Shown: positions 19,584 through 25,338, counted from the stretch's first letter. The stretch: 26,360 bases of DNA from a virus (IMGVR_UViG_2534682078_000020), one strand, 5' to 3'. The notes: generated by a model not told the origin, from the sequence alone. Translations and numbers: made by a program.

Positions 19584-19724
19584 GCATTTATATCAACTGG
19601 TTACTCCCTTCTTCAGGTTCACCCTCGTTCGTTAAAAATCGCTCGAACCCACACTACTTTGCTGGTAAAAATGCTGGTAAAGCTGGTTCGATTTGCGTTT
19701 TACCAGCACGCGGAGGGAACCGTC

Positions 19725-20999
19725 ATGTCACTTACTGATACTAAAGTAAAAAATGCCAGACCAGCGGAAAAAGCCGTCAAGCTCACTGATGGATTTGGTC
19801 TCTACCTTCTTGTGCATCCCAATGGTTCAAAATACTGGCAGTTAGGCTATCGCTTCGATGGTAAACAGAAAGTGTTTTCCATTGGTGTTTACCCTGCGGT
19901 TTCTCTTGCTGATGCCAGACAACGACGTGATGAAGCAAAAAAGCTGCTTGCTCAGGGAGTCGATCCTAACGCTAAAAAACTGGCTGATGAAAAAGCGCTG
20001 CAGGAAAAGCGGGATAAAACCTGTTCGTTCCGTGTCGTCGCCAGAAGCTGGTTTGCCACCAAAACAAAATGGTCAGAAGATTACGCCGATACGGTATGGA
20101 AGCGCCTTGAGACCTATGTATTCCCGGATATTGGCGACAGCAACGTTTCAGATCTGGATACGGGTGATCTGCTTGTTCCGATTAAAAATGCAGAAACACT
20201 CGGCTACCTTGAAATTGCCATGCGGATTAAGCAATACATCACCGCGATCCTACGTCATGCCGTCCAGCAAAAGCTTATGCGTCATAATCCGGCCTATGAT
20301 ATGGAAGGCGCTGTCCAGAAACCAGAGACGGAACACCGCCCTGCACTGGAGCTGGAAGAGATCCCGCTACTGCTTGAACGTATTGATGCCTACAAAGGTC
20401 GTGGACTAACTACACTGGCGATTAAACTCAATCTGTTGATTTTCATTCGTTCCAGTGAACTCCGCTATGCACGATGGTCAGAAATCGACTTCAACAGTAA
20501 GTTATGGGTAATACCAGAAAAGCGTGAAGCGATTGAGCGCGTCAAATATTCCACGCGTGGCGCAAAAATGAAACGCCAGCACTTCGTTCCCCTCTGCAGG
20601 CAGGCTCTTAAAATACTGAAAGAGATCCGCCAGCTTACCTATGAAGAAGGTAATGAGGCGGGGTTAATTTTTACGGGCTGTTATGACTCGTTCAAGCCCA
20701 TGAGTGAAAACACCATCAATAAAGCGCTACGTAAGATGGGCTATGACACCACGCAGGACATCTGCGGTCATGGTTTCCGCACGCTGGCATGTAGTGCTCT
20801 GATTGAATCAGGGCTATGGTCTGAAGATGCGGTAGAACTTCAAATGAGCCACAAGGAAAGCAACAGCGTTCGTGCTGCCTATACCCATAAGGCCAAACAT
20901 CTTGAGCAGCGAAGGTTGATGCTACAGTGGTGGGCAGATTATCTTGATGCAAACCGGGATGGGATGGTCAGGCCGTTTGAGTTTGCTCAGAAACAATAA
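19725..20999 (+). CDS. int: P4-family tyrosine integrase
   Basis: 424 aa from ATG at 19725 (GGAGG 8 nt upstream); N-terminus MSLTD...GLYLLV...G.KYW..GYRF.GK is the P4/CP4-type integrase signature; C-terminal catalytic region with HGFRT...Y. Confidence 0.85.
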   Translation: MSLTDTKVKNARPAEKAVKLTDGFGLYLLVHPNGSKYWQLGYRFDGKQKVFSIGVYPAVSLADARQRRDEAKKLLAQGVDPNAKKLADEKALQEKRDKTCSFRVVARSWFATKTKWSEDYADTVWKRLETYVFPDIGDSNVSDLDTGDLLVPIKNAETLGYLEIAMRIKQYITAILRHAVQQKLMRHNPAYDMEGAVQKPETEHRPALELEEIPLLLERIDAYKGRGLTTLAIKLNLLIFIRSSELRYARWSEIDFNSKLWVIPEKREAIERVKYSTRGAKMKRQHFVPLCRQALKILKEIRQLTYEEGNEAGLIFTGCYDSFKPMSENTINKALRKMGYDTTQDICGHGFRTLACSALIESGLWSEDAVELQMSHKESNSVRAAYTHKAKHLEQRRLMLQWWADYLDANRDGMVRPFEFAQKQ

Positions 21000-21030
21000 T
21001 CGCCTTCCAGCAAGCAGACAATCGTAGTAA

Positions 21031-21061
21031 ATAAAAAACGCAGGGAGGTTTACTCTCCCTG
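21031..21061. terminator. Bidirectional Rho-independent terminator between int and the convergent small gene
   Basis: CAGGGAG-GTTTACT-CTCCCTG with A-run on the left and TAATTTG on the right. Confidence 0.6.
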
Positions 21062-21068
21062 TAATTTG

Positions 21069-21320
21069 TCACTTACGCCCTTTGTTTGATTGTGCCAAAA
21101 CAGAGGCTGCAAGTTGCTTCGTTAACTTGCTGGAACGTGGATTATCAAGAGCTGATGATGCCTTATGCTCCATTTGCCCACTTGTCTGGTTTGATGTCCC
21201 ACGTTGTGAAAGCGCGGAACCAGCGAGGCTTTTCTGGATAGCTGAAGCGTTCGGATTAGTCAGCGTTTTTGCAGCGGTAGAAGCCACATTTTCAGAAGTC
21301 TGTTTTACGTTTTTACTCAT
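21069..21320 (-). CDS. Hypothetical Ser/Ala/Thr-rich small protein
   Basis: ORF followed by a terminator; low-complexity composition; no family recognised. Confidence 0.35.
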   Translation of the reverse strand: MSKNVKQTSENVASTAAKTLTNPNASAIQKSLAGSALSQRGTSNQTSGQMEHKASSALDNPRSSKLTKQLAASVLAQSNKGRK

Positions 21321-22022
21321 GAAACGAATCCCCAAGAAGTTATGAATATTCCTTATGCAGTACTTTCATTTCTAAAAAAACACTATATGAAGTGATAACC
21401 ATATTTTTTATAAGCCTTAATTTTGCTAAAGGCAATATTATTGCTGTATAAAATTACAGTAAAAGTTTAATTGATTGATTTTAATCATAAAAATATTCAT
21501 TCAGACAGGAACAAGAGACGCCAGAAGCTCCTTATCTTCCTTAAATGGTTGCCTTCTGAAAATCAAGATTGAGGGCCGTGTTAACATTACGCGGGTAAGA
21601 TCATTGAACATACATAGCTCAGCAGTTAGCAGATAAGGCTGAAGCAACGTATCAACGAGGGAACGCGGTTGCGCTGAAGGATGATTGGACGGCGTATTCT
21701 TTTACCAATATTTAACTGCTCTGTTTGAAAACACCGTTATGTTCCCTATCTCTCATAAAGGACAACTTCCTGACACCAGCTTTTCTGGTTGTATTAAATA
21801 AATGATAAGGGAAAAGCTATTACCAATATATAAATACAATGAATATACATAATCTATTCATCACAACTATTTATTCTCCGGATGGCCTATGCCAAATGAC
21901 CTGTATATAAAAACATTACTGGTTATACATTCAGCGCAAAAGTTGTCATATATCAATTTATTTTGTTCAATTAGAGTCTACCATAGCCAAAGTAAAATAT
22001 TTTTATTGAAGGATTAATCCTG

Positions 22023-23017: not shown

Positions 23018-23020
23018 GTA

Positions 23021-23687
23021 ATGAACTCAGTATATTCAAGACAAAATACACAAGAGAATTTAGAGCGGTTAATGGCTCAGCGTATTTTATATTCAAATAT
23101 AAAATTCATTAACCATGTAAATTTTTTATTTAGTGTGTTAATGCCCATATTAATAACGGTTAGCAAAGATTATATCATTACCGTTTTCCCCGGAGTTGAA
23201 AATGATATACTCCAATATTTTAGCTACTATGGTATTGGTATTTTAATTTTTACCATCATAACAAATGAATACATTTCAATAGCAAAAAAATAATGCAGCA
23301 AAAATACAAGAGGAATTTGACTGTGATGTATTAGGAATTCCTTGGAATGAATTGAAATGTGGCGATAAAGTAAATCACAGAATAATAGTTAAAGCAGCAA
23401 AGGAATATAAAGAAAAATACAATATAGATATACTCAAAAACTGGTACATTTCGCAAGAATATAGTTTACCACCGCTGAAAATGACAATTTTATGTCAAAA
23501 TGAGAATACAGAATGGGATTTATCTCAAAGGATCGTAGTAGGTTGTATAATCAAAACCATCATTTTTCTTTCAACGGTCTCACTGTTATTTTATGGTATA
23601 TATAATGGAGTAAAACTAAGTGATTTCCTATTTTATATAGTCTTTCTTTTACCACTTATAAGACATATATATAACATTAAAGGATAA
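23021..23687 (+). CDS. Predicted four-TM membrane effector (S-4TM-like), read across an A7 run; two ORFs as assembled
   Basis: Start 3 nt after the nucleotidyltransferase stop; hydrophobic helices FLFSVLMPILITV, YYGIGILIFTIIT, IVVGCIIKTIIFLSTVSLLFYGIY, FLFYIVFLLPLI; frames fuse if A7 (23284-23290) is A8. Confidence 0.5.
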
Positions 23688-23938
23688 TAAAGATACTATA
23701 CAAAGAATAACTCGGCTTAATGCGTTTATATGCAAAAATATAAATTCTTTAGATGAAGTAAAAAACGTAAGCGATGAAAACTTAAGATATGTTATTAGAA
23801 CCATACAAGATGAAATATTTTTACACCGCTGCAGTGGTACACCTGTTCCTGACTTAATACATATGCTTTTAAAAAAAAGAATGAATATATAAATAAGAAA
23901 CAATTAGATTATTTTTTCAAAAAAATGTCAAATTAAAG

Positions 23939-23958
23939 AAAGGGCCACATGGCCCTTT
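23939..23958. terminator. Hairpin terminator between the CBASS-like operon and the convergent tail-fibre-like gene
   Basis: AAGGGCC-ACAT-GGCCCTT with A/T-rich flanks on both sides. Confidence 0.6.
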
Positions 23959-24046
23959 TACATCCTCTATAGAGGAACTATCTATAGGATAGAATACTCC
24001 TTTAATCTCGCCATACTTGTCAAATATTAATTTTCAGTAAGTAGCA

Positions 24047-25338
24047 TTACCTACATGCATATAACCTTCTGAAATTACTATAACAATGTGTATTCCTACC
24101 ACCACTACAACGCTCCTCATTATATTCTGCAATAAGGGTTCCAGATATATAACCAAACTGAGGACTATACGTTGATCCCGGACAGGCACATGTTCCAGTA
24201 TCACTATTCGGTATAACGCATTTATAACCAGAGATTTGATCTGTTATCGTTATAAAAATACCTTTCAGGCCATCACCACTTGCTGTCTGCCATTTACCGT
24301 TAACACACGATAACACTCGACCTGTACTGTCTCGCCCCACCAGACCATTAGGCGTACATTTCGCATTTAATGTTGCCTGAACATTCAAATGGAGATATTC
24401 ACCTGCTTTGATCCTGCCTGTTGATTCAATTGTCCCGTTAGATATTATCGTGCCTGCGGTAAGATTACCTGAAGCATAAATATTACCTGCATTGTTCATG
24501 TAAACTTTAACTGTTTTCCCGGTTCCTACACCAACAGTCCCTGACGCATACAAATCATAGGTGCGAACACCGCCAGCCCAGCCAGCAGGCAAATCGTTTG
24601 GATTAAGTCCGTTCGTCGCGATACGACTACCAAACTTCGCCAGACCTGTTGTTGATAGCGTATTAAGATAGGTATCAGATTTTACTTTCAGGTTGTTGTT
24701 GATATTTACAGGACCATTAAGGGTTGAGGTTCCTCCCACAGTCAGAGCTGATGTAACAGACGCATTACCCGTTGTCTTAAGTGCGCCGGTTGTTGTTGTC
24801 CCTGATGCCGTAATGTCTTTGATGTTTTTGATACTCTTCCCACCAAGATTCAGATCATCCGTCATCGGCAACGTTCCATCACGGCGCAGATAAACAGAAT
24901 ACATTGAAGAGTTATACCCCACGCGGTAAGCCAGCAATCCACCACCCGTGATATTGCTGTAGCTATTAGAGTTCTCACTCCACTGACCACCATAGCCGGA
25001 CGCTATCTTGGTGTTTCTGCTCATCCCACCATCAACACCAGCCGCCTGAACCGCTTTACCTAACAGGTCATAACGAATACGACCACCTTCTTCCCACGGG
25101 CTGGCGGTTGTTATAAGACCATTGATGACATAATCAGGTGCTGTTCCTGAACGCTTTAACACAATCTTGTAGGATGCTTTTTGCGCGTTAGTTCCTGTAT
25201 AGCCGACAGGCAACAGACCTTCATTAATTAACGTCTGGTAAGTGATTTCACAACCAGCAGCCGAACATGTTCTTGGCCCCGGATCGCTACTTTGATTGTT
25301 GGATGATGACAGTGTGGAAATTTTGTCATAGCGAATAC
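24047..25338 (-). pseudogene. Phage tail-fibre-like protein, C-terminal portion; 5' end truncated by IS629
   Basis: Gly/Ser/Thr/Asn-rich repetitive beta-type sequence with Cys-rich C-terminal tip; reading frame stays open upstream to the IS629 left end at 25339 without an authentic start. Confidence 0.6.

Follow-up and report, generated by a model that had tools for sequence, protein, structure and literature searches.

The subject of this analysis is the neighbourhood of the asparagine tRNA gene asnT in a stretch of viral DNA of 26,360 nucleotides (IMGVR_UViG_2534682078_000020), the whole of which we call the window, and in particular its positions 19,584 to 25,338, where the tRNA gene is followed by an integrase gene, a two-gene cassette of a cyclic oligonucleotide-based anti-phage signalling system (CBASS) and a truncated pilus gene. 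The tRNA-Asn(GTT) gene lies on the plus strand at 19470-19545 (ARAGORN, Rfam). Upstream of it are a tRNA-Ser(CGA) gene, serU, on the minus strand (18389-18478, ARAGORN) and, between the two tRNA genes, an open reading frame (ORF) that matches Pfam Peptidase_M90 and represents mtfA (18533-19369); because mtfA directly precedes tRNA-Asn(GTT), the latter gene is asnT. Its 3' end carries the 25-bp sequence GTTCGAGTCCAGTCAGAGGAGCCAA (19522-19546), the direct-repeat sequence of a left attachment site (attL).

To the right of attL there is an intact gene on the plus strand for a P4-type tyrosine integrase of 424 amino acids (int, 19725-20999; Pfam Arm-DNA-bind_3, Phage_int_M and Phage_integrase). Convergent with it, and separated from it by a terminator-like hairpin at 21041-21061, is a small conserved backbone ORF of 83 amino acids on the minus strand (21069-21320), which matches PHROG 5079, a family of unknown function, and has no match in Pfam or PADLOC. 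An AT-rich spacer of 687 bp and 33% GC (21336-22022) leads to the cassette. Its first gene, on the plus strand, encodes a CD-NTase (SMODS) cyclase (22023-23017; Pfam SMODS, PADLOC PDLC00802) and is read in the window as two ORFs, 22023-22595 and 22640-23017, which match the N- and C-halves of PDLC00802. The second, on the same strand, is a pseudogene of an S-4TM pore-forming effector (23021 to about 23936; PADLOC PDLC00717, Pfam S_4TM), read as ORFs 23021-23293 and 23352-23687 with a third after them, which match successive parts of PDLC00717. A GC-rich terminator-like hairpin (23939-23958) separates the cassette from pilV', which lies on the minus strand, encodes a type IVb pilus tip adhesin and lacks codons 1-57 (24047-25338; Pfam Shufflon_N). 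This gene is cut exactly at 25338/25339 by the left end of IS629/IS1203, an insertion sequence (IS) of the IS3 family on the plus strand (25339-26360; HTH_Tnp_1, RefSeq annotation), which runs past the window end and contains an ALIL frameshift pseudoknot (25674-25790, Rfam). The cassette has a GC content of 27-28%, against 47% for int and 44% for pilV'.

Every element listed in an earlier, sequence-only reading of this DNA was found where that reading had placed it. Rfam, promoter and terminator scans of 18300-26360, with attention to the AT-rich spacer, returned only the two tRNAs, the ALIL pseudoknot of the insertion sequence and the two terminator-like hairpins, and promoter-like sites were no more frequent there than in shuffled sequence. 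No siderophore or ybt genes are present between asnT and the window end. Hence the general picture of a P4-type integrase at asnT, followed by defence cargo and no siderophore genes, is upheld by the Pfam and PADLOC matches and the absence of ybt.

In our opinion, based on sequence comparison, the region is very probably the left-hand 5.8-kb stump of an Enterobacteriaceae-associated ROD21-like (EARL) integrative mobilisable island that has since decayed. EARL islands are defined by integration at Asn-tRNA genes with repeats of 24-37 bp, a P4-like integrase and an excision factor (recombination directionality factor, RDF), TraD and a MobA/MobL relaxase, and a type IV pilin with a pilus-related protein (PMC6035254). 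One member is IE3 of the enteropathogenic Escherichia coli strain O127:H6 E2348/69, an island of 25,819 bp that has been shown to excise (PMC6035254). The 25-bp repeat GTTCGAGTCCAGTCAGAGGAGCCAA flanks IE3 at both attL and the right attachment site (attR), the latter recovered about 25.8 kb from asnW, and the island-side flank of attL also matches the window; over attL, promoter and int the nucleotide identity to IE3 is 95%. The integrase (Int) is 97.9% identical in amino acids to that of IE3, 97-98% to five other E. coli copies, and 82.7% to the integrase of the EARL clade with a restriction-modification (R-M) system of type III and SpnT (strain MIN11). The integrase feature of the EARL definition, a member of the SEN1970 clade next to attL, is therefore recognised through the identity to IE3 Int, with SEN1970 itself outside the comparison. 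The small ORF differs by one to three amino acids from its copies in IE3, EC01 and 23CRST029 (by one from that of IE3), and is identical to the copy in CP61.

The gene order agrees as well, with int, the small ORF, a slot of cargo genes and pilV following the Asn-tRNA attL in both IE3 and the window. At asnW of E2348/69 we read tRNA-Asn and int, then genes for HEPN and DUF262 proteins, a second but degraded int, the small ORF and three cargo genes; pilV comes next, and beyond it lie the gene of a type IV major pilin, traD, that of a mobQ relaxase and, further on, repL and a DUF6387 gene. Both pilV' and the segment that starts at the 3' end of int, spans the small ORF and stops at 21495 match E2348/69 and about 100 other genomes at approximately 89% (megablast). 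In intact relatives pilV is accompanied by a type IV pilin gene and traD, and genes for a MobQ relaxase and an excision factor are present as well. IE3 differs from the window in lying at asnW and not at asnT, in being complete (attR, pilin gene, traD, mobQ and right-end genes), where the window has the first 5.8 kb only, in an extra int-HEPN-DUF262 module at its left end, and in its slot, which holds an MvdD ATP-grasp set and not CBASS. The founding EARL island, ROD21 of Salmonella Enteritidis, is likened here by description: it has the same tRNA target, asnT, and gave the family its definition (PMC6035254), whereas it is intact and excisable and its cargo is H-NS-like and TlpA, with no CBASS.

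The gene that the sequence-only reading called tail-fibre-like is in fact pilV', as Shufflon_N, the context and the full-length homologues indicate. Its product is 94-97% identical to residues 58-487 of the 487-residue PilV of intact EARL islands (94% in the case of IE3), and the 57 missing residues are the prepilin leader (MIKNKGFTLLEV...) and the N-terminal helix. In IE3 the full-length PilV matches Shufflon_N and, weakly, N_methyl, and its neighbour is a PilS-type pilin. The former label is understandable, because PilV' matches a phage tail family, PHROG 523 "tail collar fiber protein" (E 1e-21); NCBIfam returned nothing for PilV'. As a separate observation, the PilV of EC01 (11821-13245 of its locus) is 96-97% identical to PilV' over the first approximately 350 aligned residues and fully divergent over the last approximately 80. 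There the variable adhesin tip adjoins the cargo slot; the annotation shows no rci recombinase gene in the vicinity.

The whole arrangement belongs to the O111 lineage of enterohaemorrhagic E. coli (EHEC): of 5426 complete E. coli genomes, 43 contain 80% or more of 19400-26360 (megablast), and the CBASS cassette occurs only in those 43. The cyclase matches PDLC00802 in two parts (E 3e-85 for profile positions 1-187 and 4e-49 for 208-332) and Pfam SMODS (1.7e-10), the GS...DxD motif (GSFARRTKIRPLDDIDIM) is readable in its sequence, and its distant relatives in the PDB include CdnD-type and cyclic AMP-AMP-GMP synthase structures. NCBIfam gave nothing above its cut-off (CBASS_cyclase_b 107.6 bits against a cut-off of 200). 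Of the features of type I CBASS, then, we find a CD-NTase cyclase with a Pol-beta-type nucleotidyltransferase core, its ORF frameshifted in the window, and directly downstream an S-4TM effector gene in the form of a pseudogene; no other ORF in 21496-24044 has a defence match, and Cap2/Cap3 and HORMA/TRIP13 genes are absent from it. Judged by sequence, the repaired layout is that of type I CBASS, a cyclase and a 4TM effector with no ancillary genes. The same two genes in the same order (PDLC00802, then PDLC00717) are intact in Desnuesiella and in a gammaproteobacterial metagenome-assembled genome (MAG), in which the effectors have 303 and 311 amino acids, each after a cyclase gene. The window differs from them by two frameshifts in the effector and one in the cyclase, and the cyclases nearest to it outside O111, from Rahnella, Serratia, Yersinia ruckeri and Firmicutes, reach no more than 61% identity in a search of 5.8 billion protein clusters. 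In that search the cluster of the cyclase itself is confined to E. coli, with 351 member sequences. Among one representative genome per species no close intact donor of the cassette was found, amino acid identity being at most 59%.

By analogy with known systems, the cyclase of an intact cassette would make a cyclic nucleotide on phage infection, the 4TM effector would then permeabilise the membrane, and the infected cell would die before the phage matures (abortive infection). The cassette as it now stands appears dead from its sequence, with the effector broken in every genome that has it and the cyclase further broken in the window only. The effector contains two +1 frameshifts, one in the A7 run 23284-23290 and one at the GG of 23682-23683, with the surrounding sequence the same throughout the 43 genomes, in which RefSeq annotates three fragments. 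If one A and one G are removed at these places in silico, an ORF of 304 amino acids is restored, which aligns end to end with the intact S-4TM proteins of Desnuesiella (32% identity) and the gammaproteobacterial MAG (28%). It seems reasonable to suppose that the two frameshifts were gained and became fixed in the O111 lineage, and that the cyclase of the window acquired one more.

The lesions peculiar to the window are of a different kind. Across 6961 bases it differs from the O111 genome RM9131 by only two deletions of one nucleotide, both in A-runs: at 22574, where A7 has become A6 and the cyclase is split, and at 23879, where the effector C-terminus is altered and the 43 genomes carry an extra A (…AAAAAAAAGAAATG…). 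All 43 have the longer form at both positions, so that both lesions are private to the window, and in all 43 the cyclase is an intact ORF of 331 amino acids. Such a pattern is typical of homopolymer sequencing error, and the two deletions may be assembly errors.

Could the CBASS then still be active, its frameshifts being sequencing errors, bypassed, or phase-variable switches? Indeed, A-runs, where slippage and homopolymer sequencing errors readily occur, contain three of the four lesions, the two private ones look like assembly errors, and the cyclase is whole in the complete genomes. However, the two effector frameshifts are identical in 43 independently assembled genomes, with three RefSeq fragments everywhere, the one at GG 23682-23683 lies outside a homopolymer run, and both have to be corrected before the 304-amino-acid ORF appears. 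We therefore consider continued activity highly unlikely and, from the sequence, predict that the native cassette would give no phage-resistance activity.

One may also imagine that in the other O111 genomes the orphan cyclase has been recruited as the signal source for another effector, encoded elsewhere in the genome, given that its ORF is intact in all of them despite a dead partner. However, the 43 copies are 99.9% identical over the 3-kb stretch 21000-24046, and the intactness of the cyclase carries no weight because there is too little divergence for neutral decay to show; moreover, the copy in the window is itself broken. We see very little chance for this idea, and we return to the reading of a dead cassette. 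What had been described from the sequence as a CBASS-like operon is accordingly there as far as the pair of cyclase and S-4TM genes goes, but both are pseudogenes in the window. The locus is a case of defence-finder matches that turn out to be pseudogenes.

The right-hand side of the island has fared no better. In RM9131 IS1203 is followed by a truncated family-9 glycosyltransferase gene, which from its position we take to be yeeL', and then by shiA and amn; the two unoccupied asnT sites examined read asnT, yeeJ, (glycosyltransferase gene) and shiA. The sequence-only reading hoped to locate attR downstream, beyond the window. The window has the asnT 3' repeat only once, even with three mismatches allowed, and no further copy lies in the 20 kb beyond IS1203 in RM9131, where the 17-bp core repeat CCAGTCAGAGGAGCCAA is confined to the four Asn-tRNA genes. 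That reading also allowed that ybt genes or a complete P4 gene set might follow IS629, and would then have had to be given up; neither does, since the sister genomes continue with IS1203, yeeL', shiA and amn. We conclude that the right boundary no longer exists: an IS1203-associated deletion removed attR, yeeJ and part of yeeL.

Intermediate stages can be seen in other O111 strains. Strain 08-3342 has pilV', an N-terminally truncated mobA', two hypothetical genes, a lipoprotein gene, IS1203 and yeeL', and in strain UTME-6 one IS1203, in reverse orientation, separates pilV' from the mobA fragment, with another preceding yeeL'. Thus a truncated MobA/MobL gene survives at the same locus in both. 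The window shows the most reduced form, which is compatible with the loss of a segment between two IS copies. Remnants at asnT have also arisen independently, in F1267 (int, IS3, yeeJ') and in CP61_Sichuan (int, small ORF, IS1, yeeL').

The history that we propose runs as follows. An intact EARL island has some 20-40 kb and comprises, in this sequence, attL, a P4-type int, the small ORF, the cargo slot, pilV, a type IV pilin gene, traD, a MobQ/MobA relaxase gene and, towards the right end, further genes, the RDF gene and attR. Such an island would have integrated at the 3' end of asnT in an ancestor of the O111 EHEC lineage. Insertions of IS1203/IS629 and deletions would then have removed pilV codon 57 and all that lay to its right, including attR, yeeJ and part of yeeL. 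The stump cannot move, because attR, the excision factor gene and the relaxase gene have been deleted. As far as can be judged from the sequence, the result is an immobile and non-defending remnant in which int is the one intact gene of known function. The suggestion that the islet is degraded is thereby amply borne out, by the truncated pilV, the deleted right end and the frameshifted CBASS.

Certain points speak against this account. The assignment to the EARL family is by near-identity to IE3 and other intact islands, with ROD21 itself outside the comparison. The window lacks three of the five modules that define the family (RDF, relaxase/TraD, pilin), and we infer their loss, partly from relics in sister strains. 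Of the two attachment sites, the window has an attL identical to the 25-bp repeat of IE3, and attR is missing from it and from the sister genomes, which agrees with a deletion; no SEN1998-like RDF gene, expected near attR, lies between asnT and IS629, the right end being deleted in the O111 genomes examined; pilV' is present without codons 1-57, and the type IV pilin gene is absent from the window, as are the MobA/MobL (MOBQ) relaxase gene and traD. If the two private deletions are assembly errors, the cyclase of the window is intact, as in the 43 complete genomes. Finally, the defence role that the ancestral cassette may have had in E. coli is taken from what is known of the CBASS family.

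The proposal of the sequence-only reading that the islet is a degraded P4-like phage satellite, a defence hotspot carrying CBASS, deserves a closer look. The domain architecture of the integrase is P4-type, and P4-like satellites are known to carry defence systems at tRNA hotspots of E. coli (PMC10121019). Yet psu, delta, sid, the alpha primase(-helicase) gene and cos are all absent, both from the islet (Pfam, PHROG, NCBIfam) and from the sampled full-length relatives (annotation), which have instead pilV and traD together with genes for a pilin and a MobQ relaxase, and in IE3 also repL. The PHROG matches other than that of the integrase are of unknown function or tail-fibre-like. Moreover, P4-like satellites are listed at hotspots #1, #9, #33 and #37, and not at the Asn-tRNA hotspots #13-16 (PMC10121019). 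In the absence of P4 hallmark genes, and with a backbone that is that of EARL islands (PMC6035254), we believe that a P4-like satellite is very improbable here.

An origin from the High Pathogenicity Island (HPI) that lost its ybt genes and gained CBASS we regard as practically out of the question: asnT is its classical site (PAI-asnT, approximately 31 kb, 57% GC; PMC7545054), and tRNA gene, 17-bp core repeat CCAGTCAGAGGAGCCAA and a P4-type integrase are common to both, but Int is only 49.2% identical in amino acids to the HPI integrase, which at asnT precedes ybtS-ybtA, and approximately 66% in nucleotides over part of the length only, the flanking small ORF and pilV belong to EARL islands with their different backbone, and ybt, irp and fyuA are absent from the window, with no ybt after IS1203 in the sister genomes. 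Having weighed both proposals, we retain the EARL stump.

A few features lie on the other side of the tRNA genes. The serU site (18389-18478) is occupied by the remnant of a lambdoid prophage (within 1-18336) with a truncated integrase gene (17884-18336). It contains an element of the IS66 family (ORFs 581-1006, 1003-1353 and 1384-2997) and, at 3203-3454, a group of three phage tRNA genes, the third of which is called tRNA-Met(CAT) by ARAGORN and tRNA-Ile by RefSeq. In RM9131 the prophage exonuclease gene is interrupted by a 1.8-kb insertion with an IS91-family transposase gene and a hypothetical gene (15663-17491 of its locus). The window lacks this insertion (site 16891), and its exonuclease ORF is continuous (15950-17983, 677 amino acids).

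It remains to consider where the CBASS cassette sits. Window and IE3 are homologous up to precisely 21495 and again from 24045, two bases short of the pilV stop codon, which defines a cargo slot at 21496-24044. Its right flank is pilV', and its left flank a conserved AT-rich non-coding stretch of backbone with 29% GC (21321-21565), recognised by homology to related islands: it is 78-82% identical to EC01 (L006), 23CRST029 (L008) and a third locus (L007), and 90.7% identical to IE3 up to 21495. The pilV-pilin module is matched in 631 of the 5426 genomes, and there too homology begins at the pilV stop codon. We read the cargo from loci sampled one by one, since a composite query over 60 genomes gave mostly pilV and pilin names only. 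The slot contains an MvdD ATP-grasp gene and two unknowns in IE3; a Cap4-nuclease/pentapeptide protein in STS63-1-E and NS-NP030; two unknowns and a TIR protein of 293 amino acids in EC01 (PADLOC PDC-S66, E 7e-114; ThsB-like); a cytosine (Dcm) methylase and an ATPase with similarity to PD-Lambda-5_A in 23CRST029; and SpnT with a type III R-M system in MIN11. TlpA, the TIR protein carried by ROD21, also has 293 amino acids. The slot between int and pilV is thus variable and in related islands usually holds defence-type genes, and the O111 cassette is one such occupant, presumably a type I CBASS of foreign origin with 28% GC.

How cargo enters the slot is hinted at by a relic. The stretch 21588-21733 is 73-75% identical in nucleotides to annotated integrase pseudogenes at the same place in IE3 (L002, 19560-19713) and 23CRST029 (L008, 8694-8851), and we regard it as a degraded second integrase copy. 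It is visible in DNA only, as a tblastn search of the AT-rich spacer with integrases gave no significant protein-level match. Possibly, then, cargo arrives by tandem integration and subsequently decays. The AT-rich DNA reported in the sequence-only reading is therefore real, with 687 bp at 33% GC, but not featureless, about 245 bp being conserved backbone and 21588-21733 the integrase relic. We further observe that islands of the IE3 type (L002, 15051-20000, and STS63-1-E, L003, 20001-24646) start with int and a DUF262/HEPN pair and continue with a degraded second integrase gene. In IE3 this left module of DUF262 and HEPN genes matches PADLOC NsnA and PD-T4-2_A. It seems that in these islands a small module of integrase plus defence genes integrated in tandem at attL of an older island.

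That asnT is a defence hotspot, as had been suggested, is confirmed by the literature: the yeeJ-mtfA interval is defence hotspot #16 of E. coli, with occupants in 393 of 897 genomes, and the other three Asn-tRNA loci are hotspots #13-15 (PMC10121019 Table S1). Integrative mobilisable elements are, moreover, common carriers of defence systems (PMC10121019). Hence the island family, the CBASS type and the asnT hotspot have all been described previously, and the O111 remnant is a further, decayed member of the EARL family, although O111 is not mentioned in the EARL paper and its supplements (PMC6035254). In the literature that we searched, no paper links ROD21 or EARL islands with anti-phage cargo.

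The same backbone is not confined to Asn-tRNA genes. The series pilV, pilin, traD, mobQ, lipoprotein and DUF4755 genes is also found near zinT/yodB, on the serU side, with an integrase gene of 1221-1227 nt, in "clone D i14", ST1193 and NS-NP030 (L027, L028 and L029). In "clone D i14" the genes after mobQ include tcpC, another TIR gene and one with a macro domain, an arrangement suggestive of a second cargo slot, and this island appears to be the PAI-serU of uropathogenic E. coli (22 kb, 38% GC, TcpC). PAI-serU resembles the EARL islands in its backbone of pilV, pilin, traD, mobQ and lipoprotein genes, the pilV-pilin module being 92-94% identical in nucleotides. It differs in integrase and in attachment site, which is on the serU side; in the window serU holds the prophage remnant.

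Taken by itself, the window is of small import, as a dead remnant of one clonal EHEC lineage, although the stepwise erosion by IS1203 can serve as a marker of the O111 lineage. The only wider point is the pattern of the cargo slot, together with a backbone common with the serU islands, and this merits a systematic survey. The cargo seen across the EARL and serU islands consists of CBASS, TIR/Thoeris-like proteins, a Cap4-type nuclease, R-M systems and a DUF262-HEPN pair. We would give an even chance to the idea that the fixed slots of the EARL and serU "TcpC" islands, one between int and pilV and the second after mobQ, serve as exchange points for anti-phage genes. If this is true, the O111 CBASS would count as a further occupant of such a slot, though a dead one, and the TIR proteins TlpA and TcpC, long deemed virulence factors, would sit at phage-defence positions and may be primarily anti-phage.

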